Of a stretch of 64,000 bases of DNA, positions 1,928 to 42,806 are shown piece after piece (the first letter of the stretch is position 1; the number at the start of each line of letters is the position of its first letter). The notes beneath the pieces were generated by a model. That model saw nothing but the letters and a program-made list of their open reading frames with translations. It was not told the DNA's origin and searched no databases. Source of the stretch: an uncultured Actinomycetota bacterium (GTDB lineage Bacteria > Actinomycetota > Actinomycetes > JACCUZ01). Where the stretch lies: NCBI GenBank assembly GCA_963807005.1, contig CAWDZK010000006.1, positions 558,875 to 622,874 on the forward strand, given 5' to 3'. The position numbers and the translations under genes are program-made.

Positions 1928-4653
1928 TCGACGAGACCGCGCTGGCCGACCCGACCCGCTGCCCGGACTGCGGCGCGCCGCTGACCGCGGCCCGGGACGT
2001 CTGCCCGGGCTGCGCGCTGCCGCTCACCGGACCCCTCGCCGGTCGTCTCTGGCAGGTGTCGCTGCAGGCCGACGAGCTGCTGCGGACGCGCTCCCGGCTG
2101 GTCGCCGAGCTGCGGACCCAGGGGGCGGCTGACGCGGCGCAGCCGGTCGACCGGTCTGCCGGGTCGTCCGTCGGGTCGCCGTTCGCCACGCCAGCGGCCG
2201 CCGGGACGGCGCGCCCGGTCCGGCCACGGACCGAATGGTCCGCACGCCGGGTCCAGGAGCTCCTGCTCGCCCTGGGCGTCGGCCTGCTCGGCGTCGCGGC
2301 GGTGATCTTCGTGGCCGTGTCCTGGGACCGCCTCGGCGTGGGCGGCCGGTCGGCCGTGATGGCCGGCCTCACCGGACTCGCCGGCTTCGCTGCCGTACGG
2401 GTGCACCGGCGGGGGCTGCTCTCCACCGCCGAGTGGCTCTCCCTGCTGACGGTCGGGCTGGGCGTCCTGGACTGCTACGGCGCCCGCAGCGCCGGACTCG
2501 CCGGGCTCGCGGAGGTCGACGGCCAGGTCTACTGGGCCGGCGCCCTGGCCGTTGTCGCCGCTCTCACCGCGCTGCTCGCGGTCGTCCTGCCCACCCGGGT
2601 GCTGCCGGTGACGGCCGCACTGCTCAGCCAGATACCGCTGCTCCTGCTGGCCGACCACCTGGTCGTCGACTCCGCGCAGCCGCTCGCGCTGGCTGCCGCC
2701 CTTCTCGCCGTGCAGGCCGTCGTCGACCTCGGGATCGCCGCCGCCTGGCCGGGCGGCTCGCGCACCCGCGACGCTCGCGTCGTCGTCGCGGTCGGGGGCG
2801 GCCTGGCGCACCTGCTGGCCACGCTCGCGGCCGGCGCGGCGGCGTACACCGAGGACGGCTCGCTGGTCGTCGGCACCGGGCTGCTGCTGGCCCTGGCCGG
2901 TGTCCTGGCGGTCGCGGCGACCCTCGCCGCCGGGCGGCCCCGGGCGCGCCCGGCCGTGCCCTCGCTGGACGGCCTCACCGCAGCCCTGGTCGTGGCCGGC
3001 GTCTGGGCGCCCGTCGTCGACCGGACCCCGGACCGCTGGCTCGGTCCGGCGCTCGGGGCGGCGGCGCTGGCCCTGCTCGCGGCCACGCTGGCCCTGCCGG
3101 CCACCCGCCGTCAGGCCCCGGCCGGCGTGCTCCTCGCAGCCGGGCTGGTGCCGCTGCTCGCCGCGGCGGACGCCGTGGCGGACGCGGCCGAGCAGGCGCT
3201 GACGCCGATCGAGCGCCCCTGGGCCGGGACCGCCGCTGCGGCGGCGTGGGCGGCCGGCTGGCCGGACGTGCTGTCGCTGCTGGCGGTGGCCGCCGCGCTC
3301 GTCCTCGGCGGGTACGTACTGCGGCGCTATGCCGGTCGCGTCGCTGCAGTGCCGGTCCTGGCTGCGGCTGCCGCCCTGGCGGGCCCGGCGTCGGGCGCCG
3401 GCTACGCGGTGCAGCTCGGCCTGCTCGGGGTGCTCGGCGCCGCTCTTCTCGTCGCGGGTGCCCTGCTCCACCGGCGGGGCCAGGCGCAGCCGTCCTGGGC
3501 GGCGCTCGGCTCCGGCGCGGTCGCCGTCGGGCTGATGACCGCCTGGTCCTTCGCCCTGCCCGCCGCGACGATCGCCGCCCTCCCCGGCGCCGCCCTCGCC
3601 CTGCTCGCCGGAACGGCTGCGGCCCTCGGCGTCGAGTCCCTGCGGCCGTGGCGGGTCGCCCTGGTGACCGGGTCGCTCGTGCTCGGCCTGGTCGAGGCCG
3701 GCGCGGTGGCCCGCGACGGTGGCGCCGGCTGGCCGGCCGTGTGGTCGGTCGTGCTGGTGCTCGCAGTCGGCGTCGGGGTGGGCGTCGCGTCGGCGCTCGC
3801 ACTGCGCACGGCGCCGACCGACGCCTTCTGGGGTCCGCTGCACACCACCGCGGTGATCGCGGCGGCGACAGCAGCGGTCGCCGGCACCGGCGCTGTCGCG
3901 CTCTGGCGGGACGTGGCCCTCGCGGGGAGCGGGCTGGCGGCGTCGTGCACGGTGGGCGTGCTCCTTGCCGCGACCGCCATCCCCGTGCCGACCGGCCGGC
4001 CGGTGCGTGGCGCCGTCCAGGTGGTGTCGGTGGTGACCGCCTGGCCCGCCCTCGCTGCCTCCGCGCTGGACGGGGACCGGCTCTGGGTTGCCCTGCTCGC
4101 CGTCGGGCTGGGTCTCGCCTTCGTGGCCACCACACCGCAGCGGCATGACGTGGGGTGGGCTGCGGGTCTGGTGCTCGCCGGCAGCAGCTGGGTGCGGCTG
4201 GCGCTCTCGGACGTCGAGGCTCCCGAGGCCTACACGGTGCCGGGCGGCGTCGCGCTGCTGGTGGTCGGCTTCCTCCGCCGCCGGCGCGACCCGGCGTACG
4301 GCTCGTGGCAGGCCTACGGCAGCGGGCTCACCCTCGCCCTGGTGCCGAGCCTGCTCCGGGCGGTCACCGACGCGGGTGACCTCCGCCCGCTGCTGCTCGC
4401 GGTCGTGGCTGCCGGGGTCGTCGCCGCCGGTGCGGTCCGCCGGCTGCAGGCGCCGCTGCTGCTCGGCGCCGGGGTGCTCGCAGTCGACGCGCTGGTGCAG
4501 CTCACGCCGTTGCTGGTCGCGGCGTACGAGGTGGTACCTCGGTGGCTCACGATCGGGGGCCTCGGTCTGCTGCTGCTCGTCGCGGGGATGACGTACGAGC
4601 AGCGGGTCCGCGACCTGCGTCGGGTCGGGCGGCACGTCGCCCGGCTGTCCTGA
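1924..4653 (+). CDS. Large polytopic integral membrane protein with N-terminal zinc-ribbon (CPDCG...CPGC), SCO7613-like architecture
   Basis: GTG start at 1924 is in frame with ORF 1051..4653. N-terminus reads VIDETALADPTRCPDCGAPLTAARDVCPGCALPLTGPLAGRLWQ, followed by about 850 aa of repeated hydrophobic helices. The long antisense ORF 1891..5550 is rejected as a GC artefact. Confidence 0.6.
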   Translation: MIDETALADPTRCPDCGAPLTAARDVCPGCALPLTGPLAGRLWQVSLQADELLRTRSRLVAELRTQGAADAAQPVDRSAGSSVGSPFATPAAAGTARPVRPRTEWSARRVQELLLALGVGLLGVAAVIFVAVSWDRLGVGGRSAVMAGLTGLAGFAAVRVHRRGLLSTAEWLSLLTVGLGVLDCYGARSAGLAGLAEVDGQVYWAGALAVVAALTALLAVVLPTRVLPVTAALLSQIPLLLLADHLVVDSAQPLALAAALLAVQAVVDLGIAAAWPGGSRTRDARVVVAVGGGLAHLLATLAAGAAAYTEDGSLVVGTGLLLALAGVLAVAATLAAGRPRARPAVPSLDGLTAALVVAGVWAPVVDRTPDRWLGPALGAAALALLAATLALPATRRQAPAGVLLAAGLVPLLAAADAVADAAEQALTPIERPWAGTAAAAAWAAGWPDVLSLLAVAAALVLGGYVLRRYAGRVAAVPVLAAAAALAGPASGAGYAVQLGLLGVLGAALLVAGALLHRRGQAQPSWAALGSGAVAVGLMTAWSFALPAATIAALPGAALALLAGTAAALGVESLRPWRVALVTGSLVLGLVEAGAVARDGGAGWPAVWSVVLVLAVGVGVGVASALALRTAPTDAFWGPLHTTAVIAAATAAVAGTGAVALWRDVALAGSGLAASCTVGVLLAATAIPVPTGRPVRGAVQVVSVVTAWPALAASALDGDRLWVALLAVGLGLAFVATTPQRHDVGWAAGLVLAGSSWVRLALSDVEAPEAYTVPGGVALLVVGFLRRRRDPAYGSWQAYGSGLTLALVPSLLRAVTDAGDLRPLLLAVVAAGVVAAGAVRRLQAPLLLGAGVLAVDALVQLTPLLVAAYEVVPRWLTIGGLGLLLLVAGMTYEQRVRDLRRVGRHVARLS

Positions 4654-18385: not shown

Positions 18386-18544
18386 GGTGGGCTCGTGGCG
18401 ACCTTCGGTGCTGCTCGGCAGGACGGGGTCCACCCTCGTCCTCCACGACGGTGGCGTCCACCTCCGGCGCTCACCCGGGTGAGATCGGGGGCGACACCGC
18501 CCGCAGCGACACCGGCCGGACCCGGCCGGTCTAGCGTGCCGGCC

Positions 18545-19180
18545 ATGCCGGAGCGGAGCACGCTCGACGCCGACGACCGGGTGGACGCTGGCGCTGAGCT
18601 CGTCGAGGCCATCCGGGCGGGCGACGAGATGGCCTTCGCCGGGATCGTCCACCTCTGGTCGCCGTTCCTGCTGCGCACCGCGACCCTGCTCACGGGGGAC
18701 CCGGGCGGTGCCGAGACCCTGGTGCGGGAGACGTGGCTGCGGGTCCTCCGTGAGCTGTCCGCCTTCCGTCCCCCGCCGCGCCTGCGTGCGATGGTGTGCG
18801 GCGTCATGCTCCGGGCTGCCGACGTGACCGTCCCGGCGGGGGGCAGCCAGGACGAGCCGACGGTCGACCCCGGCAGGTTCCTCCCGCCGGACGACCCCCG
18901 CTGGCCGGGGCACTGGGCCGTCCCGCCCGGTGACTGGCCGGCGATGGAAGACCTCCGGGCGGGCTCGCGGGGTGTCGGTCACCTGCTTCGCGAGGCGCTG
19001 GCGGAGCTTCCGGTCGAGCAGCGGGTCGTGGTCGGCCTGCGGGACATGGCCGGCTGCGACGTGGCCGAGATCAGCGAGATCGTGCGGCGGGACCACGACG
19101 ACGTACGGCGGCTGCTGCACCATGGCCGCAGCGTTCTGCGCCGTCGGCTGGAGACCCACTTCCTCGCCCCGACCGCCTGA
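18545..19180 (+). CDS. ECF-type RNA polymerase sigma-70 factor (no adjacent anti-sigma gene)
   Basis: MPERSTLDADDRVDAGAELVEAIRAGDEMAFAGIVHLWSPFLL (region 2) ... LAELPVEQRVVVGLRDMAGCDVAEISEIV (region 4). Confidence 0.85.
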   Translation: MPERSTLDADDRVDAGAELVEAIRAGDEMAFAGIVHLWSPFLLRTATLLTGDPGGAETLVRETWLRVLRELSAFRPPPRLRAMVCGVMLRAADVTVPAGGSQDEPTVDPGRFLPPDDPRWPGHWAVPPGDWPAMEDLRAGSRGVGHLLREALAELPVEQRVVVGLRDMAGCDVAEISEIVRRDHDDVRRLLHHGRSVLRRRLETHFLAPTA

Positions 19181-22443: not shown

Positions 22444-22531
22444 GGCCCTGCAGTCCCTCCCCGCCCGACCGCGTTACGCACCCCGTCGATCAGCCGACGA
22501 AACGAGGTGGGCACCCGGTAGACCTAGGAGC

Positions 22532-23206: not shown

Positions 23207-23280
23207 GCGCGGGGCCCGACCTGTAACGCCGGGTACGCGCGGGTGACTGTGCTGCCATCCGCGAGGCGAGGAGACAGGTC

Positions 23281-33145: not shown

Positions 33146-34378
33146 TCACATGGTGACGGAGGTGCTTGCCTGCCGGGGCTGCGGCACCTCGGCGTCGCCC
33201 GGCTCGACCGGCTCCCGCAGCAGGCCGAGCGCCACCAGCGGGAACAGCAGCACGGACAGCAGACCGGCGGTGACCATCGCCGCGCCGGTGACCGGTGAGA
33301 TGCGTTCCAGCTCGATGCCGATCTGCACGGCAGCCACGATGAACGGCAGCGACGTCGCCTGAAGCAGCGCCACCGCCGCTGTCGGGCGGCCGCCGAGGGC
33401 GCGCAGCTGCAGCAGCGCCGGGAGCCCGCGCATCACCAGCAGGGCGAGCAGGAAGACCGGCACCCGGAGCAGGGCCGAAGGCTGGTCGAACAGCCCCTGC
33501 AGGTCCAGCCGGGCGCCGCTGCTCACGAAGAACACCGGGATCAGGAAGCCGAACCCGATCGCCTCCAGCTTGGTGCGGAACGCCGGGTGGCTGGACGAGT
33601 CGCGATCGACGACCCCGATCACCACTCCCGCCAGGAACGCACCCAGGATGCTCTCCAGACCGACCCGCTCGGCCAGCGCGGTGAAGGCGACCAGCAGGAC
33701 GACGGCGAACCGGACCCGGATCTCGGCAGTGGTGTCCTGCAGCCGGACCAGGACGTCGCCGAGTCGCATGGCCCGGCCCGCGCGCGACACGACGACACCG
33801 GTCACGACGACCAGCAGGACGAACAGGGCCAGCAGCGTGACGCGGCTCCCGGCGCCACCGTCGGAGGCCGAGAAGAGCAGCGACAGCAGGACGATCGCGG
33901 CGAAGTCGGCGACGGTCGCGGCCAGGATCGCGGTCTGCGCGACCCGGCCGTCGGCCTGGCCGGAGTCCTTGAGCACCGGCACGACCAGCCCGAGCGAGGT
34001 CGCGGACAGCGCGATGACGACCAGGACCGGGCTGCGCACCCACCCGGCTGCGTCCAGCGCCAGGCCCACGGGAACGCCCAGGGCCAGTGTGACGACGTAG
34101 CCCAGCACGGCGCCGCGCAGCAGTGCCCCCTTGAGCCGGCGTACGTCGATCTCCAGCCCGGAGAGGAAGAGCAGGAAGGCCAGGCCGATCAGGCTGAGGA
34201 TCTGCACCGGGAGGTCCACCTCGACCCAGCCGAGGACGGCCGGCCCGAGGATGATGCCGGCGACCAGCTCCAGCACCACCGAGGGGAGCCGCACGCGCGG
34301 CGCGAAGCCGAGGGCCAGCGGGGCGAGGGCGCCGACGAGGGCTACGAGGAACAGGTTGTCGAACGACACGTCAGGCAC
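33146..34378 (-). CDS. Cation:proton antiporter (CPA1/CPA2-type Na+/H+ or K+/H+ exchanger)
   Basis: GTG start with AGGAGA RBS. VPDVSFDNLFLVALVGALAPLALGF...ELVAGIILGPAVLGWV...LFLSGLEID..., 11-13 TM helices. Confidence 0.85.
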   Translation of the reverse strand: MPDVSFDNLFLVALVGALAPLALGFAPRVRLPSVVLELVAGIILGPAVLGWVEVDLPVQILSLIGLAFLLFLSGLEIDVRRLKGALLRGAVLGYVVTLALGVPVGLALDAAGWVRSPVLVVIALSATSLGLVVPVLKDSGQADGRVAQTAILAATVADFAAIVLLSLLFSASDGGAGSRVTLLALFVLLVVVTGVVVSRAGRAMRLGDVLVRLQDTTAEIRVRFAVVLLVAFTALAERVGLESILGAFLAGVVIGVVDRDSSSHPAFRTKLEAIGFGFLIPVFFVSSGARLDLQGLFDQPSALLRVPVFLLALLVMRGLPALLQLRALGGRPTAAVALLQATSLPFIVAAVQIGIELERISPVTGAAMVTAGLLSVLLFPLVALGLLREPVEPGDAEVPQPRQASTSVTM

Positions 34379-34389
34379 GTCAGGTCTCC

Positions 34390-35778
34390 TCAGAGTCCGT
34401 AGGTCTCCAGGAGGCGCAGCCACACCTCGCTGATCGTGGGGAAGGCGGGGACCGCATGCCAGAGCCGGTCGAGCGGCAGCTCGCCGGCGATGGCGACGGT
34501 CGCCGAGTGGAGCAGCTCCTGCACGCCAGGGCCGGTGAAGGTGGCGCCGACCACGACGCCTCGCGCCTGGTCGACGACCAGCTTGCTGGTGCCCCGGACG
34601 CCGTTGCCGGAGGTGTATGCGCCCGCGACGTCGCCCGTCCCGTACGTGACGGCCCGCACGGCCAGCCCGCGTGCCGTCGCCTCCGCCTGGGTCAGCCCGA
34701 CTGCGCACACCTGCGGGTCGGTGAACGTCACCCGGGGCACGACGTCGCGGCTGGCGAGGTCCCGGACGTCCTTGCCCAGGATGACGTCGCCGGCGATCCG
34801 GGCCTGGTACTTGCCCATGTGGGTGAGGGGCGCAAGTCCGTTGACGTCGCCCACCGCGTACAGCCAGTCGCCCTCGACGCCGACGGCGTGCAGCCGGTCG
34901 TCGACAGCGACCGGCGCGCCGGGTTCCAGTCCCACCGTCTCCAGACCGAGATGGTCGGTGGCGGCGCGACGCCCGGCAGCGACCAGCAGCTCGTCGCCGA
35001 CGACCGCGGTGCCGTCGGCGAGCTCGACCGTCACCGGGCCGTCGGGCTGGACCCGGTGCACCGCCACCAGCCGTGCCGCGACCATGACGGCGACGCCCTC
35101 GTCCTCGAGCGCTGCCTTCACCTCGTCGCCGGCGAACGGCTCCTCGCGCGGCAGCAGCCGGGGACCGACCTCCAGGACCGTGACCTCCTCCGAGCCGAGG
35201 CGCCGGAACGCCTGGGCCAGCTCCACCCCGACGGCTCCGCCGCCCAGGACCACCAGTCGCCGAGGCGCCGACTTGGCAGCGGTGGCGTCGCGGTTGTCCC
35301 ACGGACGTGCGTCGGCCAGGCCGGGGAGCGCTGGCAGACGTGACCGGGTCCCCGTCGCGAGCACCACCGCTCGTCGCGCGCGCACCTCGCTGGTCGTGCC
35401 CGCCGTCGTGACCGCCACCGTGCGGGCGCCGGACAGCCGGCCGTCGCCGCGCAGCAGGGCGATGTCGTTCTCCGCCAGCCACGGCAGCGCCCCGGCGTCG
35501 GACCAGCCGCTGGTCATGTAGTCGCGTTGGGCGAGCGCTGCAGCCACGTCGACGGGACGGGTGACGGCCTCGGCTGCGCCCGGCACCCGCCGGGCCGCGG
35601 CCAGGACGTCGCCCGGCCGGATCAGCGTCTTGCTCGGGATGCATCCCCAGTAGCTGCACTCCCCGCCGACCAGCTCACGCTCGACCAGGGCCACCGACAG
35701 CCCGCCCGCGGCGCAACGGCCGGCGGCGTTCTCGCCAGCGGGGCCGCCACCGATCACCACGACGTCGTACTCGTCCAT
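34390..35778 (-). CDS. Pyridine nucleotide-disulfide oxidoreductase (Lpd/LpdA-like FAD/NAD(P) flavoprotein)
   Basis: MDEYDVVVIGGGPAGENAAGRCAAGGLSVALVERELVGGECSYWGCIPSK (FAD-binding and redox CxxxxC) ... second Rossmann LVVLGGGAVGVELAQ ... dimerisation domain. Confidence 0.85.
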   Translation of the reverse strand: MDEYDVVVIGGGPAGENAAGRCAAGGLSVALVERELVGGECSYWGCIPSKTLIRPGDVLAAARRVPGAAEAVTRPVDVAAALAQRDYMTSGWSDAGALPWLAENDIALLRGDGRLSGARTVAVTTAGTTSEVRARRAVVLATGTRSRLPALPGLADARPWDNRDATAAKSAPRRLVVLGGGAVGVELAQAFRRLGSEEVTVLEVGPRLLPREEPFAGDEVKAALEDEGVAVMVAARLVAVHRVQPDGPVTVELADGTAVVGDELLVAAGRRAATDHLGLETVGLEPGAPVAVDDRLHAVGVEGDWLYAVGDVNGLAPLTHMGKYQARIAGDVILGKDVRDLASRDVVPRVTFTDPQVCAVGLTQAEATARGLAVRAVTYGTGDVAGAYTSGNGVRGTSKLVVDQARGVVVGATFTGPGVQELLHSATVAIAGELPLDRLWHAVPAFPTISEVWLRLLETYGL

Positions 35779-35808
35779 CTGCGCTCCGTCCCGGCGGCCG
35801 CAGATCCG

Positions 35809-36666
35809 TTACGCGCGGACGGCGGCGAGGGTCGCGACCCCTGCGGCCACCACTGCGACGCCGGACACCTGGAGCCGAGTCAGCCGTTCGCGGAACAGCA
35901 GATAGGCCGCGACCGCTGCGATCCCGGCGAACTGGGAGGCCAGCACCGCCGCCACGGCCAGACCGTGCCGGGCGCCCTGGGCGAACGCGGCAAAGCCGAG
36001 GACCTCGCACAGCCCCCCGACGGCCACCAGTGGCGCCGCTCGCCGGGTCAGCTGGAGCCGGCCGCTGGCGGCCAACGGCAGTGCGATGGCCGTGACACCG
36101 ATCAGCCTGGCCGGCAGGAGGACCCAGGCGACGGGCAGGTCAGCGCTGGCCCGGCTGGTCGCGTAGAGGCTGGCCCCGAACGAGACCGCGGCGACGCACG
36201 CCAGCAGCACGGGCGGGGTGCCGAGCCCGGACGTGCGACCGGCGGTGGCCGGGGCGTCGGACGTGGGCCCGGACGCGGCGAGGGCCACCCCGACGACGAT
36301 GACCGGGAGCAGCCAGGCCGCGGCGACCTCCAGCCGTTCGCCGCTGGCCACCGACGCCACCGCGGCGATCGCTCCCTCGGTCGACAGCACCGGCGCGACG
36401 ACCCCCACCTTGCCGCGTCGGAGGGCCGAGTAGGCCAGCAGGAGCCCGACGACGTTGCCGCCGCCGGCAAGGAGCAGCCAGCCGAGCTGCTCGGAGCGGA
36501 GGGACGGGACGTCGACCATGACGAGTGCGGGCAGCAGTGCCACCAACCCGGTCACCATCACCCACGCCAGGACCGAGGTGGGCGGCACGAGGCGCGACGA
36601 CCGGGAGGAGCACAGCGTGGCCGTGGCGAAGAGCGCCGCGGCCGCGAGTCCACCCAGGAGTGCCAA
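35809..36666 (-). CDS. EamA/DMT-superfamily transporter
   Basis: Ten TM-like hydrophobic segments in two EamA-like halves. Confidence 0.7.
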   Translation of the reverse strand: MALLGGLAAAALFATATLCSSRSSRLVPPTSVLAWVMVTGLVALLPALVMVDVPSLRSEQLGWLLLAGGGNVVGLLLAYSALRRGKVGVVAPVLSTEGAIAAVASVASGERLEVAAAWLLPVIVVGVALAASGPTSDAPATAGRTSGLGTPPVLLACVAAVSFGASLYATSRASADLPVAWVLLPARLIGVTAIALPLAASGRLQLTRRAAPLVAVGGLCEVLGFAAFAQGARHGLAVAAVLASQFAGIAAVAAYLLFRERLTRLQVSGVAVVAAGVATLAAVRA

Positions 36667-36675
36667 GGGTGACCG

Positions 36676-37185
36676 TCAGAATCCCGCCGCGGGCCACGGC
36701 TGCCCGCTGTACCGCTGGATCACCGGGCCCGGCACCGGCGCGGCCCGCCCGAACAGGCCCCGCGCCACGTGCAGGACCGCCGGTCGGCCGAGTCGGGCGA
36801 ACGGGTCGTCACGCAGCGACCAGTGGCGCTCCCGGCGCACGGTGAGCGCACCGGCGAAGTGCGACGAGTCGCGCACGAACGTGCTGACGGCGTCGGGCGG
36901 CAGGTCCGACAGCACGGCCCGCAGCGCCCCGGACACCGCGGGGTCGTCGAACAGCGGCGACCGGTCCCGGGGAAGCAGCAGCAGCGACACCCAGGCCTCC
37001 TCGCCGTCGGCGTCGACCAGCTTCTCGTCCATCCGGACGGCGCCGGCCACCGGCTTGCGGCCGGCCGGCCACGCCGCGAGCAACCCGGCCGGGTCGCCGG
37101 TCACGGTGGTCGCCGGCGCGGCGGCCAGGGCGTCGCGGCCGACGTCGTCCGGCCCGTCGACGCGGGCGAACCAGCACCAGCTCAT
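36676..37185 (-). CDS. Hypothetical protein
   Basis: ORF translationally coupled (4-nt overlap) to the upstream redoxin-like gene. No recognised family. Confidence 0.4.
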   Translation of the reverse strand: MSWCWFARVDGPDDVGRDALAAAPATTVTGDPAGLLAAWPAGRKPVAGAVRMDEKLVDADGEEAWVSLLLLPRDRSPLFDDPAVSGALRAVLSDLPPDAVSTFVRDSSHFAGALTVRRERHWSLRDDPFARLGRPAVLHVARGLFGRAAPVPGPVIQRYSGQPWPAAGF

Positions 37186-37688
37186 GCCGGCACCTCCCAG
37201 TCCGGACGCAGGTCGGCTGTGACCCCCCGCAGGTCGCGACGGAGGTCCTCCGCGGTGGGCCGGCCCCAGAACCAGTACCCGTTGTACACCGTGTGGATGG
37301 TGAGGTCAGGGTGCAGCGTGAAGGCGGTGGGTACGTACGGCCGGTAGACCGTGTCCGTCGTCTCGCGCAGACCGAGGTCCTCGATGTACCGCCGCTCGTG
37401 GTCGGACAGGAAGGTCCAGCGGGCGCCCAGCCCCGCCCGGAAGGCTGACTGCTCGGTGGGGGTGTCGATGCTCACCGACACCAGCCGCGTGTACGCGACC
37501 TCGACCTCCTCCTGGAAGCGCACCAGCCCGCGGAAGAAGGCCTGCTCCTTCGGGCACCACCAGCCCCGGAAGAAGGTGAGGACGAGGGGATCGCCCTCAG
37601 CCAGCTCGGTCAGCGTCCGGACCACCCCGGAGTGGTCGGGTAGCTCGAGGTCGGGGAACGTCTTGCCGGGGACGAGGTCAGGGTGCAT
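37182..37688 (-). CDS. Thioredoxin-fold redoxin/peroxiredoxin-like protein (paralog of 30467..31030)
   Basis: MHPDLVPGKTFPDLELPDHSGVVRTLTELAEGDPLVLTFFRGWWCPKEQ...YNGYWFWGRPT shares the single-Cys WCP/CP motif and GYWFWGRP C-terminus with the 30467 gene. Confidence 0.65.
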   Translation of the reverse strand: MHPDLVPGKTFPDLELPDHSGVVRTLTELAEGDPLVLTFFRGWWCPKEQAFFRGLVRFQEEVEVAYTRLVSVSIDTPTEQSAFRAGLGARWTFLSDHERRYIEDLGLRETTDTVYRPYVPTAFTLHPDLTIHTVYNGYWFWGRPTAEDLRRDLRGVTADLRPDWEVPA

Positions 37689-37795
37689 GCCCGAGCCGTC
37701 TTGCCGCCGAGCGCCGCGTTACGCGTAACGGCAGGTGCGGCTCGCGGACTGACCGACGTACCGTCGAAGCATCCGGACCGAGTGGGGAGCCCGAC

Positions 37796-39625
37796 ATGTC
37801 GAGAACACCCATCGCTGACCACGCCCTGCTCTCCGACCGACACTCCAGCGCGCTGGTGGACACCGCCGGCTCGGTCGAGTGGCTCTCGTTCCCACGGTTC
37901 GACAGCCCGTCGGTGTTCGGCCGGCTGCTCGGCGAGGCTGCCGGGCACTGGCAGGTGCGCCCGACCGGCACGTGGGCCAGCAGCCGCCGCTACCTCGATC
38001 GCAGCCTCGTGCTGGAGACGACGTTCACGGCCGGCGCCGGCACCCTCGTGGTCACCGACCTGCTGGCGATGGGCGAGGACAACGGCGGGCACCGGCTCGG
38101 CACGCACGTCCCGCACCTGCTCGTCCGCCGCCTCGAGTGCACTGCCGGGAGCGTCGAGGTCCAGGTCGACTACGCGCCACGGCCCGAGTACGGGCTGGTC
38201 GTGCCGCTGCTCGCTGACGTCGAGGGCGGGGTGACGGCGCGTGGCGGTGCGGAATGGCTGGTGCTCACCTCCCCGATCGCCCTTGACCTGGCCGACGGCA
38301 GCGGACGCGGACGGCGGACCCTGACGGCCGGCGAGACCGTTCACCTGGCGCTGCACCGGTCGACGCTGGAGGAGACCCCGGCCCGGGTCTGGACGCAGGA
38401 CGAGCTCGCCGCGGTGGTGGACCGCACGGTGGGCGCATGGGTGTCGTGGTCCGAGATGCACCAGACGTACGACGGCCCGTGGGCCGACCTGGTGCACCTG
38501 AGCGGGCGGGTGCTGCAGGCGCTGTCGTTCCAGCCGAGTGGAGCCATCGTCGCCGCAGCGACCACGTCGCTCCCCGAGGGCGTCGGCGGGGAGCGCAACT
38601 GGGACTACCGCTACTCCTGGGTGCGTGACGCCAGCTTCACGATGGAGGCGCTCTGGGTGGCGGCGTGCCCCGACGAGGCGGACGACTTCTTCGCGTTCAT
38701 GACCACCGCCGCCGCCTCGTCGATCGGCCCGGGCCGTTCACTGCAGATCATGTTCGGCATCGGCGGGGAGCACGACCTGAGCGAGCGCGAGCTGCCCCAT
38801 CTCGAGGGCTGGTGCGACAGCCGCCCGGTCCGGGTGGGCAACGGTGCCTGGGACCAGGCGCAGATCGATGTGTACGGCGAGCTCCTCGGTGCCGCGCATC
38901 GGCTGGCCGACCAGCTCGGCGGGATCGACGGGCAGACCAAGGCGTTCCTGGCTGCGTGCGCCGACACCGCCGCCGAGCGGTGGCGGGAGAAGGACCAGGG
39001 CATCTGGGAGGTCCGGGGCGCCCCGCAGCACTTCCTCTACTCGAAGGTGATGTGCTGGGTGGCGCTGGACCGCGCCATCGCCCTGGCGCCCGTCCTCGAC
39101 GCGCAGGACCGGGTGCCGGCCTGGGAGTCGGCCCGGGACGAGATCTTCCGCACCGTCGTCGAGGACGGCTGGAGTGACGACGCCAAGGCCTTCACCCAGT
39201 ACGTCGGTTCCGACCAGCTGGACGCGTCGAACCTCATGATGGCCATCGTCGGGTTCCTGCCGGCCGACGACCCGCGCATCCTGGCGACGATCGACGCCAC
39301 CGAGCAGCGGCTCACCGACGACCGGGGACTGGTCTACCGCTATCGCACCGAGGGGGGCGTGGACGGTCTGGCGGGGGAGGAGGGCACCTTCCTGCTCTGC
39401 ACCTTCTGGCTCGCCCAGGCGCTGGCGCTCACCGGACAGGTGGATCGGGCGACCCGGGTCTTCGAGCGCGCCGTCGCGTTCGCCAACGACGTCGGCCTGC
39501 TCGCCGAGGAGGTGGACCCTGCCACCGGAGCGCTTCTGGGCAACTTCCCCCAGGCGTTCAGCCACATCGGGCTGGTCAACGCTGCGTGGGCCATCAGTGA
39601 GGCGGGCCGCCGGGCGTCCGCGTAA
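37796..39625 (+). CDS. Glycoside hydrolase family 15 (glucoamylase/actinobacterial trehalase-type)
   Basis: MSRTPIADHALLSDRHSSALVDTAGSVEWLSFPRFDSPSVFGRLL... NWDYRYSWVRDASFT... EEGTFLLCTFWLAQALALTG, with the GH15 catalytic (alpha/alpha)6 signature. Confidence 0.9.
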   Translation: MSRTPIADHALLSDRHSSALVDTAGSVEWLSFPRFDSPSVFGRLLGEAAGHWQVRPTGTWASSRRYLDRSLVLETTFTAGAGTLVVTDLLAMGEDNGGHRLGTHVPHLLVRRLECTAGSVEVQVDYAPRPEYGLVVPLLADVEGGVTARGGAEWLVLTSPIALDLADGSGRGRRTLTAGETVHLALHRSTLEETPARVWTQDELAAVVDRTVGAWVSWSEMHQTYDGPWADLVHLSGRVLQALSFQPSGAIVAAATTSLPEGVGGERNWDYRYSWVRDASFTMEALWVAACPDEADDFFAFMTTAAASSIGPGRSLQIMFGIGGEHDLSERELPHLEGWCDSRPVRVGNGAWDQAQIDVYGELLGAAHRLADQLGGIDGQTKAFLAACADTAAERWREKDQGIWEVRGAPQHFLYSKVMCWVALDRAIALAPVLDAQDRVPAWESARDEIFRTVVEDGWSDDAKAFTQYVGSDQLDASNLMMAIVGFLPADDPRILATIDATEQRLTDDRGLVYRYRTEGGVDGLAGEEGTFLLCTFWLAQALALTGQVDRATRVFERAVAFANDVGLLAEEVDPATGALLGNFPQAFSHIGLVNAAWAISEAGRRASA

Positions 39626-39705
39626 CGCTGCCGGCGCTGCGAGGACGGTTGCCTGCACGCCTGGCGGGACTACGCTCCGGCCTGGAGCAGAGCGGAGGCG
39701 GTTCG

Positions 39706-40425
39706 ATGCAGTCGCGCGCACCCGAGACCCCGCTGGTCGTGACGCCGGAGAGCTCGGAGCTGCCGGCACCCCGGGCGCCGACGCGGGACGACGCCGATCT
39801 CGTGAGCCGGCTGCGTGGGGGCGACGAGCGCGCTTTCGCCGACGTGGTCGGCTCCTGGTCCCCGATGATGCTGCGGGTGGCCCGGGGGCACCTGTCCACC
39901 GACGCCTCGTGCGAGGAGGTGGTGCAGGAGACGTGGATGGCCGTGGTCCGCGGGCTGCCGGCCTTCGAGGGCCGCTCGTCGCTGCGCACCTGGGTCTTCC
40001 GCATCCTCACGAACCTGGCGAAGACCCGTGGGGTCCGCGAGGCGCGCTCGGTGCCGATGTCATCCCTGGCGGCCGACCGCGACGACACGCCGACGGTCGA
40101 CCCGGATCGCTTCTGCGGCCCCGGCTACGACTACCCGGGGCACTGGACCCCGATCGGGAAGCCGACCCCGTGGCAGCCTGGTCCTGAGCAGGCGGTGGTC
40201 GCCGGCGAGACGCGCCAGCTGCTCTCGGCGGCGCTGACGGTGCTGCCGGACCGCCAGCGCACGGTGGTGACCCTGCGCGACGTGCACGGGCTGGACTCCG
40301 ACGAGGTCTGTCGCTTGCTCGACGTCAGCGCGGCCAACCAGAGGGTGCTGCTGCACCGCGGCCGGGCAAAGCTGCGCACGGTCCTGGAGGAGTACTACCG
40401 CTCACGCGAGGAGGCGACGTCGTGA
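39706..40425 (+). CDS. ECF-type sigma-70 factor
   Basis: ATG with GGAGGCGG RBS. ...ERAFADVVGSWSPMMLRVARGHL...VQETWMAVVRGLPAFEGRSSLRTWVFRILTNLA... region 4 LPDRQRTVVTLRDVHGLDSDEVCRLLDVSAANQRVLLHRGRAKLR. Confidence 0.85.
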   Translation: MQSRAPETPLVVTPESSELPAPRAPTRDDADLVSRLRGGDERAFADVVGSWSPMMLRVARGHLSTDASCEEVVQETWMAVVRGLPAFEGRSSLRTWVFRILTNLAKTRGVREARSVPMSSLAADRDDTPTVDPDRFCGPGYDYPGHWTPIGKPTPWQPGPEQAVVAGETRQLLSAALTVLPDRQRTVVTLRDVHGLDSDEVCRLLDVSAANQRVLLHRGRAKLRTVLEEYYRSREEATS

Positions 40426-40697
40426 CCGACGCCACGAATCCGGGTCTGGCAATCACCTGCCAGCAGCTGGTGGAGCTCATCACCGCCTATCTCGAGGACG
40501 ATCTGGACGAGGCCACCCGCACCGAGCTCGAGGCGCACCTCAGCCTGTGCCCGGGCTGCGAGACCTACCTCGACCAGATGAGGACCACCATCAGCGAGCT
40601 GGGCCATGTCCCGGTCGAGTCGCTCAGCGAGCAGGCCCAGTCGGATCTGCTGTCCGCCTTCCGCACGTTCACTGCGGGCACACCCGGCGCCGGTTGA
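40422..40697 (+). CDS. Zinc-binding anti-sigma factor (zf-HC2/RsrA-like, soluble)
   Basis: GTG overlapping the sigma stop. ITCQQLVELITAYLEDDLDEATRTELEAHLSLCPGCETYL, a C-x(25)-H-x3-C-x2-C ZAS motif. Confidence 0.75.
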   Translation: MTDATNPGLAITCQQLVELITAYLEDDLDEATRTELEAHLSLCPGCETYLDQMRTTISELGHVPVESLSEQAQSDLLSAFRTFTAGTPGAG

Positions 40698-40714
40698 GGC
40701 CGGGAGGAGACCCG

Positions 40715-41050
40715 GTGCTGGGCTGCCCGGAGCTCGTGGAGCTCGTCACCGAGTACGTCGAGGGGGCGCTGACGCCCGAACGGCACCATGAGGTGCACGA
40801 GCACCTGCTCGAGTGCGCGGACTGCCTGCGCTACCTCGGCCAGGTGGCGTTGACCTCGCAGCTCCTAGCGACGCTGCCGGCGCCGGAGCTGACGAGCGAG
40901 CTCGAGGCGCAGCTGGCCCGGGACTTCCGCACCGCGTCCGAGCGGCCCGGGCCGCCGAGGGTCTCGGCTCAGTTCTCCCGCAGGGACCGGAACAGGGCCA
41001 GCGCCTTCTGCCGGTCCCACTTGACGGATGACCCGGCCGGCGTCTGGTAG
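40715..41050 (+). CDS. Second zf-HC2 anti-sigma-like protein (tandem paralog); C-terminal tail overlaps convergent LCP gene
   Basis: GTG with GGGAGGAGA RBS. LGCPELVELVTEYVEGALTPERHHEVHEHLLECADCLRYL aligns position-by-position with the upstream anti-sigma. Confidence 0.55.
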   Translation: MLGCPELVELVTEYVEGALTPERHHEVHEHLLECADCLRYLGQVALTSQLLATLPAPELTSELEAQLARDFRTASERPGPPRVSAQFSRRDRNRASAFCRSHLTDDPAGVW

Positions 41051-42204
41051 TTGATGTCCGACACCGGCACCGTGACGCGCTTGCCGCCGCCACCGGCAAC
41101 CGCCCGCATCGTGAGCGCGAAGCGGACGAGCGACACCGGCCCGTCACCGTCGTCGATGGTCAGGGCGGTCGTCGCGGCGTCACCGAGGGACACGATCCGG
41201 AACGGGTTCAGCAACGTCGCCGGGCTCGCCGCCTCGTCGAAGACCGCGCCGAGGAACTCCTGCTGCCGCTGCACCCGGCCGAGGTCGCCCTTCGGGTCGA
41301 AGTACCGCGCCCGCACGTACGCCAGCGCGGTCGGGCCGTCCATCTCCTGACAGCCCTTGGCCACGTTCAGGCCGCTCTTGCGGTCGCGGATGCGCCGCTT
41401 CGGGCACAGCTCGACACCACCGACCGCGTCGGTCATGCCCACGAAGCCACCGAAGCCGACTTCGGCGTAGTGGTCGACGCGAAGTCCGGTGACGGTCTCG
41501 ACGGTCTGGGCGAGCAACGGCGCGCCACCGAACGCGTAGGCCGCGTTCAGCTTGTTCCGGCCGTGCCCGGGGATGGGCACGTAGGAGTCGCGCGGGAGGC
41601 TGACCAGAGTCGGCGCGCCGCTGGCGGGCCGGTGCAGCAGGATGATCGTGTCGGTCCGACGGCCTTCGACCTTGCCCAGGTGCAGCGCCTTCACCTGCTC
41701 GTCGCTGAGTCCTTCGCGGCTGTCCGAGCCGACGATCAGCCAGTTGGTGCCGGAGCCGGCGACCGGCCTGCCGTCGTAGTCGCGCAGGGCGTCGACCTTG
41801 TCGATCCGCGAGTAGAAGAACAGCATCGTCGCGAGCAGCAGAGCCAGCACCAGGACGAGCGCGAGCAGCCCGCGCCGCACCCATCGGACCGGCCGGATCG
41901 CGGGAACGCGGGGCCGGGGGAACGGCGGCGGCGCCGGCGCGGGACGGCGGGGCGCCTCGGGTGCGGAAGTGCGCCGGTTCGTCGGTCCCGCCGCGGCGCT
42001 CGGTCGGCCCGCTCCGGGGAGGACCTGGGTGCGCTCGGAGTCGGAGTCGGAGTCGGAGTCGGAGCCGGCCCGCGCGCCGGGGGCCGGGCGGCCGCCGTCG
42101 GCCGGCGGGCGTTCCGGCTGAGGACCCGGTCCGCGGTCGGACGACCCGCCGCGCGACCAGCCCTTCGGCCACTCGTGCGATCCCGCCACGCTGCTCCTCG
42201 TCAT
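40969..42204 (-). CDS. LCP-family (LytR-CpsA-Psr) cell-wall glycopolymer ligase with disordered N-terminus containing an (SD)n repeat
   Basis: TM anchor LLALVLVLALLLATMLFFY, then LCP core (WLIVGSDSREG...RTDTIILLH...LVSLPRDSYVPIPGHGRNKLNAAYAFGG...VDHYAEV). Start taken as ATG 42204; ORF extends to 42300. Confidence 0.8.
   Translation of the reverse strand: MTRSSVAGSHEWPKGWSRGGSSDRGPGPQPERPPADGGRPAPGARAGSDSDSDSDSERTQVLPGAGRPSAAAGPTNRRTSAPEAPRRPAPAPPPFPRPRVPAIRPVRWVRRGLLALVLVLALLLATMLFFYSRIDKVDALRDYDGRPVAGSGTNWLIVGSDSREGLSDEQVKALHLGKVEGRRTDTIILLHRPASGAPTLVSLPRDSYVPIPGHGRNKLNAAYAFGGAPLLAQTVETVTGLRVDHYAEVGFGGFVGMTDAVGGVELCPKRRIRDRKSGLNVAKGCQEMDGPTALAYVRARYFDPKGDLGRVQRQQEFLGAVFDEAASPATLLNPFRIVSLGDAATTALTIDDGDGPVSLVRFALTMRAVAGGGGKRVTVPVSDINYQTPAGSSVKWDRQKALALFRSLREN
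42037..42064. repeat. Hexanucleotide microsatellite (GGAGTC)4-5 inside the LCP N-terminal coding region (encodes SDSDSDSD on minus strand)
   Basis: Seen directly: ggagtcggagtcggagtcggagtcggag. Confidence 0.8.
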
Positions 42205-42260
42205 CGGGTCCGGCGCGGTCGGTCCGCTGCCGCAAACCCCTGACCGTACCCTTGCCGGCT

Positions 42261-42806
42261 GTGACCGACCCTTCGTCCGACCGCCCCCCGGGTGACGCAC
42301 CTCACGCCGGGAAGCCCACCAGCGCCGCTCGCAGCACCCTCAGCCGGATCATGACGGTGCTGGACACCAACCTGCTCGGCTCGGTCCATGGCGGCGTGGT
42401 GATGAAGCTCGTGGACGACGTCGCCGGCGTGGTGGCACAGCGGCACTCCGGCGGCCCGGCGGTCACCGCGTCGATGGACGAGATGGCGTTCCTCTCGCCG
42501 GTCCGGGTGGGGGACCTGGTGCACGCCGCGGCGCAGGTCAACTGGGCCGGTCGGACGTCGATGGAGGTCGGCGTCCGGGTGGTCGCCGAGCCGTGGAACG
42601 AGGCCGGCGTGGAGCCGGTGCGGGTGGCCACGGCCTACCTCGTGTTCGTCGCCGTCGACGAGGCGGGCCGGCCGCGCGTGGTCCCGCCGGTGGAGCCGGA
42701 GACGACCGAGGACCGCAGGCGGTTCGCCGAGGCGGAGATCCGCCGGCAGCACCGGCTGGCCCGTCGGGAGGCCATCCTGCGCTCGCGGGAGTCCGGCGGG
42801 ACCTAG
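42261..42806 (+). CDS. Acyl-CoA thioesterase (hotdog fold, YciA-like)
   Basis: ...TLSRIMTVLDTNLLGSVHGGVVMKLVDDVAGVVAQRHSGGPAVTASMDEMAFLSPVRVGDLVHAAAQVNWAGRTSMEVGVRV. Start is GTG 42261 or ATG 42351. The stop shares a CTAG with the convergent gene. Confidence 0.75.
   Translation: MTDPSSDRPPGDAPHAGKPTSAARSTLSRIMTVLDTNLLGSVHGGVVMKLVDDVAGVVAQRHSGGPAVTASMDEMAFLSPVRVGDLVHAAAQVNWAGRTSMEVGVRVVAEPWNEAGVEPVRVATAYLVFVAVDEAGRPRVVPPVEPETTEDRRRFAEAEIRRQHRLARREAILRSRESGGT

Follow-up and report, generated by a model that had tools for sequence, protein, structure and literature searches.

Why does one ECF sigma factor gene carry two zinc anti-sigma (ZAS) genes in its wake? Pairs of an ECF sigma and a ZAS protein form the textbook one-sigma, one-sensor redox switch. 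At this locus, a second sensor paralog has been retained for a long time, and similar extra copies arose repeatedly within the sigma family, in different gene orders. We analyzed this arrangement in a 64-kb stretch of DNA (64,000 nt; hereafter, the window) from an uncultured Actinomycetota bacterium related to Sporichthyaceae, actinomycetes of high G+C. The locus is a variation on a well-known switch, and nothing points to a new class of mechanism. Our reading, held with middling confidence, is that the three-gene operon would be a cytoplasmic thiol/disulfide-stress switch with two CHCC sensors, the second of which (ZAS2) would be a further inhibitor of the same sigma.

An ECF sigma gene is followed by two tandem ZAS genes

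The open reading frames of the window place three co-directional genes on the forward strand: an ECF sigma gene (39706..40425; ATG start, TGA stop, 239 aa), ZAS1 (40422..40697; GTG start, 91 aa), which encodes a soluble CHCC zinc anti-sigma factor, and ZAS2 (40715..41050; GTG start, 111 aa), which encodes a diverged CHCC paralog of ZAS1. The GTG of ZAS1 overlaps the sigma stop codon by 4 nt (GTGA), an overlap kept in 9/9 clade loci examined, and ZAS1 contains a C-x25-H-x3-C-x2-C motif. The preliminary description of a sigma gene translationally coupled to a soluble ZAS gene was thus borne out. The spacer between ZAS1 and ZAS2, first given as 18 nt, measured 17 nt (40698-40714). It reads as containing a Shine-Dalgarno-like sequence, GGGAGGAG (40702..40709, + strand), and the GGAGG of this region lies 7 nt before the ZAS2 GTG; no GGAGG is present in the spacers of relatives, which measure 9-17 nt, indicating that a strong ZAS2 ribosome-binding site is not kept. 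Third-position G+C (GC3) is 0.94 in the sigma gene, 0.88 in ZAS1, and 0.96 in ZAS2, and the GC3 frame changes at every boundary between them; all three genes therefore look coding. A convergent LytR-CpsA-Psr (LCP) gene (40969..42300, - strand; Pfam LytR_cpsA_psr, 5e-42) lies outside the module, overlaps the ZAS2 tail by 82 nt at its 3' end, and also adjoins the module in loci L001 and L087. Scanning the locus for E. coli-type promoters and terminators found none, as expected because the locus is 73% G+C.

The sigma factor is a member of the ECF (group IV) sigma-70 proteins, as first proposed. Its only Pfam domains are Sigma70_r2 (3.4e-12) and Sigma70_r4_2 (6.8e-13), and it passes the NCBIfam sigma70-ECF superfamily model TIGR02937 (77.9 bits vs a cutoff of 42.9). 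The linker between sigma-2 and sigma-4 is long and conserved (PTVDPDRF..PGHW..W), and 7995 homologs were recovered at E<=1e-10 among 8000 candidates scored. The protein reached no NCBIfam equivalog cutoff (its best matches, PRK11922, PRK11924, and TIGR02943, were far below theirs), and no SigR/SigH-specific model was among the best 25 NCBIfam matches listed. By these sequence comparisons, the sigma is not SigR. We also tried to name its ECF group, but NCBIfam yielded no equivalog and the ECF reclassification paper was of no direct help.

ZAS1 matches zf-HC2 above the Pfam gathering score (2.4e-10), and its ligands read as C13-x25-H39-x3-C43-x2-C46, with C13, H39, C43, and C46 invariant across 39 ZAS1 homologs. 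Its AlphaFold model has four helices (13-24, 30-42, 44-60, and 70-85). A ZAS1 ortholog directly follows the sigma gene in 78/80 related loci and, judged by this position, ZAS1 is the ancestral cognate partner of the sigma.

ZAS2 is a conserved gene with an unconserved tail

ZAS2 also matches zf-HC2 above the gathering score (3.1e-7), and its ligands read as C4-x25-H30-x3-C34-x2-C37. C4, H30, C34, and C37 are invariant across 27 ZAS2 homologs and are among 18 invariant columns in the ZAS2 alignment. Both proteins thus have the H-x3-C-x2-C of zinc-binding anti-sigma factors, with a fourth ligand (Cys/His) 23-26 residues N-terminal to it, and both genes are placed as anti-sigma genes are, ZAS1 overlapping the sigma stop and ZAS2 starting shortly after ZAS1. 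Both are single-domain CHCC proteins (91 aa for ZAS1, ~80 aa for ZAS2) without a second domain, and the sequences and models of both, in which no membrane segment is seen, indicate that they are soluble.

The conserved core of ZAS2 spans approximately residues 1-80 (40715-40954). The last ~30 of its 111 residues are a run-on tail that is not conserved and continues into the antisense strand of the LCP gene; in the near-identical relative L001, a 1-nt indel in a run of G shifts the frame of the tail. The AlphaFold model of ZAS2 has helices at 4-15, 21-33, 35-52, and 61-75 and a tail with pLDDT ~50, while the cores of both the ZAS1 and ZAS2 models reach 85-96 and consist of a three-helix bundle joined by a fourth helix. 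Compared with solved structures, the ZAS2 model (the sole model searched) came closest to RsiW, RslA, MucA, and ChrR, with weak E-values.

ZAS2 lies directly 3' of ZAS1 in every locus in which it was found (L001-L011, L014, and L087-L089). The ZAS2 sequences form one clade, whose set of loci matches that of the corresponding ZAS1 clade, and the position of the start is conserved, with an in-frame stop just 5' of it in relatives. Among the listed pairs, the ZAS2 core gives dN/dS values of 0.10-0.45, apart from the pairs with the two most distant members (L011, 0.87; L014, 0.67); the values for ZAS1 are similar (0.07-0.62). The tandem arrangement is therefore kept in relatives, and the second open reading frame, which a lack of conservation would have called into question, is instead conserved and mostly under purifying selection. 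The conserved position, single clade, and low core dN/dS argue that ZAS2 is a real gene.

The two proteins align over 72 residues with 25 identities (35%), without gaps (BLASTP, E=9e-12), which agrees with the residue-by-residue alignment first reported, and a profile-profile comparison gave 99.8% probability (E=4.7e-30). Divergence is uneven among the helices. Class I anti-sigma domains make contact with sigma-4 through helix 1 and with sigma-2 through helix 4 (PMC7406223). For helix 1, the two paralogs share 80% identity, equal to the identity inside each paralog, and this helix is conserved throughout the family. Helix 4 is 70% conserved within ZAS1 vs 23% within ZAS2, and is absent from ZAS2 orthologs of 59-66 aa. 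Going by the alignments, ZAS2 is losing, or has already lost, the helix of the putative sigma-2 contact. Helix 3 of ZAS2 has a conserved signature of its own, CLRYLGQxQLTxRLL.

A candidate promoter motif precedes the operon and thiol-redox genes

It had been suggested that the region upstream of the sigma gene be searched for an autoregulatory ECF promoter. This search yielded a candidate, GTAACG-N16-GACGG (39622..39648, + strand), whose -35 element contains the TAA of the upstream GH15 gene and which is kept upstream of the sigma gene in L001, L002, L004, L008, L010-L013, and L016. Across the window, we counted 3 exact matches to the motif, with 0.19 expected, and 6 matches to the relaxed form, GTAACG-N16-GAC(G/T)G, with 0.08 expected. 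All of the sites point toward a start codon no more than 60 nt away, and for three of them the distance from the end of the site to an ATG is exactly 7 nt. We considered the motif as a family-wide feature and rejected this, as it did not turn up upstream of the sigma genes of more distant members (7/64 loci scanned). A second element, TACGCT (39671..39676, + strand), lies ~30 nt upstream of the sigma ATG and resembles a housekeeping-type -10 (TAnnnT); TAnnnT is found at the same alignment position in L007, L008, L009, L012, L014, and L015. The E. coli-type promoter scan returned nothing at this site, which we infer from its sequence to be a putative sigma-A -10.

Further sites in the window precede other genes. 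One (37696..37722, - strand) ends 7 nt before the ATG (37688) of an AhpC/TSA-redoxin-like (peroxiredoxin-like) gene (37182-37688, - strand), an arrangement also present in L001 and L007. A GACTG variant (37725..37751, + strand) precedes the GH15 trehalase-like gene (37796-39625) by 44 nt, and the motif is likewise found before GH15 orthologs in L007, L009, L011, L014, L015, L021, L026, and L029. A further site (35786..35812, - strand) ends 7 nt before the ATG (35778) of a flavoprotein (pyridine-nucleotide) disulfide reductase of 462 aa with the active-site motif CSYWGC (34390-35778, - strand), and the motif precedes orthologs of this gene in L026 and L029. The genes behind the motif in the window include the sigma gene, the peroxiredoxin-like gene, the disulfide reductase, and glycosidases. 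Extra ZAS genes can also carry it: in L011, where 90 nt separate ZAS2 from ZAS1, this gap contains a copy belonging to ZAS2, and in L012, a convergent second ZAS has its own copy.

Together, these data lead us to infer that GTAACG-N16-GAC(G/T)G is the candidate promoter of this sigma, giving an uncharacterized ECF family a promoter motif together with a small candidate regulon for thiol stress. We know of no described ECF -10 element of the form GACGG or GACTG. SigD and ECF16 promoters are known to have a -35 of the form GTAAC(A/G) (PMC13537577, PMC3420878). The divergent sites at 37696..37722 and 37725..37751 together form a palindrome, CGTTACGCGTAACG (37717-37730), and an operator bound by a regulatory protein is an alternative reading of this pair.

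ZAS2 probably acts as a second brake on the same sigma

We propose the following model for this operon. The ECF sigma would be held inactive by ZAS1, a translationally coupled, soluble CHCC anti-sigma with a complete four-helix domain. If ZAS1 works like RsrA, it would release the sigma once its Cys-His-Cys-Cys zinc site is oxidized, and the sigma would then transcribe from GTAACG-N16-GAC(G/T)G its own operon and the genes for the peroxiredoxin-like protein, the disulfide reductase, and the glycoside hydrolases. ZAS2 would have arisen when the anti-sigma gene was duplicated once, long ago, in the clade's ancestor. Having kept the zinc/redox ligands and helix 1, having gained its own helix-3 surface, and losing the sigma-2/specificity helix 4, it would serve as a further redox-sensitive inhibitor of this sigma, co-expressed and binding mainly via sigma-4. 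Full release of the sigma would then need inactivation of both sensors, and induction of the operon would restore the brake (i.e., negative feedback). Zinc binding and redox sensing by both proteins are predicted here from the characterized systems that they resemble.

The anatomy of ZAS2 favors its role as a second inhibitor because the predicted sigma-4-binding helix is kept while the sigma-2-binding helix is degenerating, and we thus suggest, from sequence, that ZAS2 probably acts on this sigma as a second redox-sensitive brake. The conservation of helix 1 could, however, reflect folding around the zinc site and not a common sigma-4 target. If ZAS2 tunes the threshold, shut-off, or logic of the switch, this would explain how simple modules diversify, and such modules would offer compact parts for synthetic orthogonal sigma circuits.

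Extra ZAS copies recur across the sigma family

The preliminary description held that most SigR-RsrA-type modules have one anti-sigma. For the family of this sigma, that statement needs qualification: a six-frame HMM scan of both strands found a second family ZAS within 3.5 kb in 23/80 related loci (a + strand regex scan alone gave 8/80). The extra copies occur in several gene orders and duplication therefore recurs. Carriers include cultured strains, among them Kibdelosporangium persicum 4NS15 (L022), Actinomadura fulvescens JCM 6833 (L084), and Streptomyces spp. in which the genes are ordered ZAS'-sigma-ZAS1 (L048, L052, L058, and L083). Three-helix second copies of 53-69 aa that lack helix 4 are found in several independent lineages (L009, L014, L017, L027, L059, L067, and P0018-P0026). 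Our literature search for tandem or duplicated ZAS genes found none, the sole case being the NepR-type RsiA1/RsiA2. A tentative generalization, which we consider worth stating at low confidence, is that the second CHCC paralog, often a helix-4-less "mini-ZAS", may be a recurrent, independently evolved, distinct part (a sigma-4-only inhibitor or an anti-anti-sigma) that makes a two-sensor device. If so, the one-sensor redox switch would gain a second sensor, the two differing in threshold or kinetics and expressed from the promoter of the sigma itself.

Alternative roles for ZAS2

ZAS2 might instead be the anti-sigma of a different sigma factor, most plausibly an orphan, diverged paralog encoded 21 kb upstream (18542-19180); here, the whole sigma-ZAS module would have been duplicated long ago, the pair split, and ZAS2 left behind ZAS1. 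This is unlikely, even though several features fit. The orphan is a member of the family of this sigma (the two are 37% identical, E=1e-31, and have the linker PTVDP..RF..WPGHW in common), its GC3 of 0.92 suggests that it is coding, and it is followed by a convergent folE-like gene and has no adjacent ZAS. We found no third ZAS gene within the 64-kb window, the identity between the two sigmas is similar to that between ZAS1 and ZAS2, and the specificity helix 4 differs between ZAS1 and ZAS2. In the metagenomes, the orphan's closest relatives (L091 and L092) have no family ZAS next to them either, unlike the ordinary members L093-L095, which have one; these relatives neither support nor exclude the orphan as the partner of ZAS2. 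By contrast, ZAS2 is always directly after ZAS1 and never beside another sigma, its helix 1 is as alike between the paralogs as within each, and its helix 4 is poorly conserved or absent, not re-specialized. Moreover, the orphan may not be a working sigma: no Sigma70_r2 domain was detectable in it, and a search of 1.84 billion representatives turned up only 3 relatives at E<=1e-30. It stands as an alternative candidate partner suggested by sequence and, if this were true, the operon would couple two sigma regulons.

Alternatively, ZAS2 could bind no sigma, serving as an anti-anti-sigma or decoy that heterodimerizes with ZAS1, or setting the threshold for ZAS1 oxidation as a sacrificial thiol/zinc buffer. 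The strict co-encoding of ZAS2 with ZAS1 (9-17 nt downstream in most loci), its own helix-3 signature, and the repeated emergence of helix-4-less three-helix copies are consistent with such a role. We nonetheless consider it quite improbable. The literature searched holds no precedent for a ZAS-ZAS heterodimer, and the kept helix 1 argues for sigma-4 binding. In addition, a crystal structure (PDB 3HUG) has the isolated three-helix ZAS domain of RslA in complex with the -35 promoter-binding domain of SigL, and the loss of helix 4 is therefore compatible with sigma binding.

Finally, the variable length and frame of the ZAS2 C-terminus, its overlap with the LCP gene, and the ribosome-binding site not kept in relatives might suggest a nonfunctional, decaying duplicate or a frame merely open from high G+C, but this very improbable reading is already contradicted by the conservation data, namely a 60-residue core whose helices 1 and 3 are 75-79% identical across the clade, the invariant columns that include all four putative zinc ligands, a dN/dS well below 1 in most pairs, the in-frame GC3, and the kept start with its upstream in-frame stop.

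Comparison with known systems

SigD/ECF16-type promoters resemble the candidate motif in their -35 (GTAAC(A/G)) and spacer (~16 nt), and in EcfF the transcription start lies ~6 bp past the -10 and overlaps the ATG, which resembles the 7-nt gap seen here (PMC13537577, PMC3420878). They differ in their -10, which is CGAT or CGAA and not GAC(G/T)G, and in their anti-sigmas, which are RsdA or DUF1109 proteins and not soluble ZAS proteins; no SigD chain was among the sequence matches listed for the sigma.

RslA-SigL of Mycobacterium tuberculosis (PDB 3HUG) is the best PDB sequence match for ZAS1, albeit a weak one (E=0.015), and RslA is among the top fold matches of the ZAS2 model. Because its ZAS domain was crystallized with the promoter-binding domain of the sigma alone, RslA is a precedent for inhibition by helix-4-less ZAS2 forms. 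Unlike ZAS1 and ZAS2, however, RslA is membrane-anchored, of the HHCC type, and encoded by a single gene.

RsiA1 and RsiA2 of RpoE2 in Sinorhizobium meliloti are two paralogous anti-sigmas acting on one ECF sigma, with one encoded in the sigma operon (PMC8103513). These proteins differ from ZAS1 and ZAS2 in that they are NepR-type, proteobacterial, and not in tandem, work by partner switching with PhyR, and have no zinc motif.

Close parallels are RsrA-SigR of Streptomyces coelicolor and RshA-SigH of mycobacteria and corynebacteria, in which, as here, a soluble, single-domain CHCC anti-sigma is encoded directly after an actinobacterial ECF sigma. SigR-type promoters read GGAAT-N18-GTT. The present sigma is preceded by GTAACG-N16-GACGG and, as noted, reaches no NCBIfam equivalog cutoff and has no SigR/SigH-specific model among its best 25 listed matches, so it does not qualify as an ortholog of these partners. 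The label "RsrA-type" given to the two ZAS proteins holds in the loose sense of Rajasekar et al., who describe soluble, single-domain CHCC proteins with an N-terminal Cys 25 residues before H-x3-C-x2-C (PMC4960319), but not as membership of the RsrA family: ZAS1 and ZAS2 score 25.6 and 27.7 bits vs the TIGR03988 cutoff of 62.5. RsrA chains were absent from the PDB sequence matches of both proteins at E<=10, and RsrA structures were absent among the fold matches listed for the ZAS2 model. The spacing of Cys11, His37, Cys41, and Cys44 in RsrA nevertheless matches that of both proteins, and it is the N-terminal Cys that makes RsrA redox-responsive (PMC4960319). The cysteines equivalent to those of the RsrA trigger disulfide (Cys11-Cys41/44) are present and invariant in ZAS1 and ZAS2. 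As in the RsrA and RshA systems, the candidate regulon takes in the operon of the sigma itself along with thiol-redox enzymes; those systems have one anti-sigma gene, whereas this locus has two paralogous ones that are not RsrA orthologs.

A conserved sigma-ZAS1-ZAS2 locus

The ECF sigma gene (39706-40425, +; ATG start, TGA stop, 239 aa) is followed by two co-directional zinc anti-sigma genes. ZAS1 (40422-40697, +; 91 aa) begins at a GTG in a GTGA overlap with the sigma stop codon, and ZAS2 (40715-41050, +; GTG start, 111 aa as an open frame) lies beyond a spacer that includes GGGAGGAG and measures 17 nt rather than the 18 nt first given. The sigma protein matches Sigma70_r2 and Sigma70_r4_2, and each ZAS protein matches zf-HC2, all above Pfam gathering scores. 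Both paralogs carry C-x25-H-x3-C-x2-C, align without gaps over 72 residues (35% identity, E=9e-12), and have homolog profiles that match with 99.8% probability. GC3 is 0.94 for sigma, 0.88 for ZAS1 and 0.96 for ZAS2, and the frame of this signal changes at every boundary between the genes. Locus anatomy, Pfam domains, paralog alignment and GC3 thus bear out the preliminary description of an ECF sigma factor with two tandem ZAS paralogs.

A search of 5.8 billion proteins returned 27 ZAS2 homologs: an exact match, one near-identical relative, 24 proteins with 55-74% identity over an N-terminal stretch covering 50-77% of ZAS2, and a distant protein of ZAS1 type (44% identity). In the ZAS2 alignment, all four zinc ligands are invariant, as are 14 further columns. 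dN/dS over the ZAS2 core (62 codons) was 0.10-0.45 in the listed pairs, barring two comparisons with the most distant members (0.67 and 0.87); for ZAS1 it ranged from 0.07 to 0.62. The order sigma-ZAS1-ZAS2 occurs in every retrieved context, with or without the LytR-CpsA-Psr (LCP) gene downstream. By gene order and core dN/dS, the second ORF is kept in relatives, a point on which the preliminary description depended.

ZAS2 orthologs are 59-117 aa long and do not align past residue ~60-80. The last 82 nt of the ZAS2 frame are antisense of the 3' end of the convergent LCP gene (40969-42300, -). In a near-identical metagenome locus (L001), a 1-nt indel in a G-run shifts the tail frame (40955-41050 in the window, 4240-4318 in L001), giving two unrelated tails, and tail pLDDT is ~50 (AlphaFold). 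Because of the LCP overlap, the frame change and this pLDDT, we conclude that the tail is translational run-on outside the functional protein. Tails that are unrelated between near-identical strains mean that the 111-aa and 105-aa annotations overstate ZAS2: the gene is real, with conservation limited to the first ~80 residues.

Anti-sigma duplication recurs across the sigma family

Scanning one genome per prokaryotic species with the sigma alignment yielded 80 loci (sigma identity 52-77%) from Sporichthyaceae-like MAGs, Frankia, Geodermatophilus, Kribbella, Lentzea, Amycolatopsis, Streptomyces and others. A ZAS1 ortholog lies immediately 3' of the sigma gene in 78 of them. ZAS2-type proteins, with the signature CLRYLGQxQLTxRLL, follow ZAS1 only in the closest relatives (L007-L011, L014 and metagenome loci L001-L006 and L087-L089). 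They form one clade, whose loci are those of the matching ZAS1 clade, which indicates that ZAS2 goes back to one old duplication.

When both strands were scanned with an HMM in all six frames, 23 of the 80 loci had two or more family ZAS ORFs within 3.5 kb. The second copy is tandem in Kibdelosporangium persicum (L022) and Actinomadura fulvescens (L084), convergent in L012, L017, L055 and L079, upstream of the sigma gene in four Streptomyces loci, and 1-2.3 kb away in some loci. Duplication of the anti-sigma gene is therefore recurrent in this family, and the window holds one long-lived case. A number of second copies span just 53-69 aa, stopping after helix 3 (L009, L014, L017, L027, L059, L067; P0018-P0026). 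Judged from sequence, loss of helix 4, the predicted sigma-2-binding helix, is recurrent in several independent lineages and confined to the extra copy.

In the Streptomyces loci (L048, L052, L058, L083), two CHCC ZAS paralogs flank the family sigma gene as ZAS'-sigma-ZAS1; in L083 (3100-4375) these lie at 3100-3345, 3450-4145 and 4142-4375. No second sigma gene was found within 3.5 kb of these four loci, and a second sigma-like ORF is nearby only in L019, L067 and, weakly, L017.

ZAS2 retains helix 1 of ZAS1

AlphaFold models each paralog as a four-helix anti-sigma domain. The solved folds nearest to the ZAS2 model, the sole model searched, were RsiW, RslA, MucA and ChrR, with weak E-values. 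Across nine loci, helix 1 identity was 80% between ZAS1 and ZAS2, 80% within ZAS1 and 79% within ZAS2; the corresponding values were 28%, 70% and 52% for helix 2, 39%, 78% and 75% for helix 3, and 17%, 70% and 23% for helix 4. ZAS2 has no helix 4 in L009, L014 and metagenome forms of 59-66 aa. Class I anti-sigma domains touch sigma-4 through helix 1 and sigma-2 regions 2.1/2.2 through helix 4, which bears most of the specificity (PMC7406223). Combining helix identities with this contact map suggests that ZAS2 still has the sigma-4-binding element found in ZAS1 and has acquired a helix-3 surface of its own, and that selection on its sigma-2-binding helix has probably relaxed. Helix 1 also carries the first zinc ligand and could instead be conserved for folding.

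A candidate promoter shared with thiol-redox genes

An alignment of sigma upstream regions, where the preliminary description had proposed looking for an autoregulatory promoter, shows a conserved candidate, GTAACG-N16-GACGG (39622-39648, +; 57 nt to ATG 39706). This exact motif occurs three times in the 64-kb window versus 0.19 expected, and GTAACG-N16/17-GAC(G/T)G occurs six times versus 0.08 expected, a count reached in 0 of 100 shuffles. Every site has a start codon within 60 nt downstream. The other five precede genes for an AhpC/TSA-redoxin-like protein (37696-37722, -; 7 nt to start), a 462-aa flavoprotein disulfide reductase (35786-35812, -; 7 nt), a GH15 trehalase-like protein (37725-37751, +; 44 nt), a GH63/MGH1-like hydrolase (22451-22477, -; 7 nt) and an SDR-like protein (23223-23249, +; 31 nt). 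The three sites exactly 7 nt from an ATG suggest leaderless mRNAs. Orthologous genes in relatives are preceded by the same GTAACG-N16-GAC(G/T)G motif. It also lies in the 90-nt gap between ZAS1 and ZAS2 in L011 (4422-4448); in L012 (4700-4726, -) it directly adjoins the first possible start codon of the second ZAS gene, which is convergent there. Both placements suggest that expression of the second anti-sigma gene depends on the sigma factor.

SigD and ECF16 promoters have a GTAAC(A/G) -35 element and a ~16-nt spacer, and EcfF transcription starts 6 bp past the -10 element, overlapping the ATG (PMC13537577, PMC3420878). The window motif resembles SigD/ECF16 promoters in its -35 element and spacer, but its -10 half is unusual. 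Together, these data support, without proving, an ECF promoter under autoregulation, mRNAs that are in part leaderless and a thiol-redox-rich regulon.

Two candidate -35 elements lie back to back in the region from which the AhpC-like and GH15 genes diverge, and together they make a perfect palindrome, CGTTACGCGTAACG (37717-37730), which could equally be the operator of a dimeric regulator. Gene ends overlap candidate promoters at two sites: the TAA of the GH15 gene (39623-39625) lies inside the GTAACG -35 of the sigma-operon candidate, and that of an EamA-family transporter gene (35809-35811) inside the -35 of the candidate ahead of the disulfide reductase gene. The disulfide reductase gene is followed on its own strand by a gene for a cation/proton-antiporter-like membrane protein (33146-34390, -; N-terminus ..DNLFLVALVGALAPLALG..); similar genes lie right behind the ZAS gene in L023, L051 and L068, with the motif ahead of them.

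Proposed mechanism and alternatives

[quoted passage not shown] ZAS2 would thereby add a second sensor and stronger negative feedback.

The main rival, that ZAS2 serves an orphan sigma paralog ~21 kb upstream (18542-19180, +), is unlikely. This paralog has 37% identity to the ECF sigma, shares its linker motif and looks coding (GC3 0.92), with TAGCGT 7 nt ahead of its ATG, but no sigma-2 Pfam domain was detected in this fast-evolving protein. No anti-sigma gene adjoins it, and a folE-like gene converges on it. Only three relatives were found at E<=1e-30 among 1.84 billion representatives, and its few close relatives likewise have no adjacent ZAS. Somewhat more doubtful still is a role for ZAS2 as a decoy or anti-anti-sigma factor acting on ZAS1, which fits the recurrent forms that lack helix 4 but has no precedent in the literature searched. 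That ZAS2 is a decaying pseudogene is contradicted by the conservation data and highly improbable.

Comparison with known systems

Each part of the locus belongs to a known kind, and the logic inferred for the whole is conventional. We consider it of moderate interest because extra sensors have appeared more than once in the family and have repeatedly lost helix 4, and because cultured strains carry them (e.g., Streptomyces L048, L052, L058 and L083), making the two-ZAS question testable there. The preliminary label RsrA-type holds for type (soluble, single-domain CHCC) and exact ligand spacing, which both paralogs share with RsrA (PMC4960319), but not for orthology: ZAS1 (25.6 bits) and ZAS2 (27.7 bits) score below the 62.5-bit cutoff of TIGR03988, the NCBIfam equivalog model for RsrA/RshA, and no RsrA chain is among their PDB sequence matches. 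The sigma protein reached no equivalog cutoff among NCBIfam models. The literature searched yielded no description of a single ECF sigma factor served by ZAS genes in tandem or in duplicate. The closest precedent is RsiA1/RsiA2 of Sinorhizobium meliloti RpoE2 (PMC8103513), a NepR-type pair that provides two anti-sigma factors for one ECF sigma factor.
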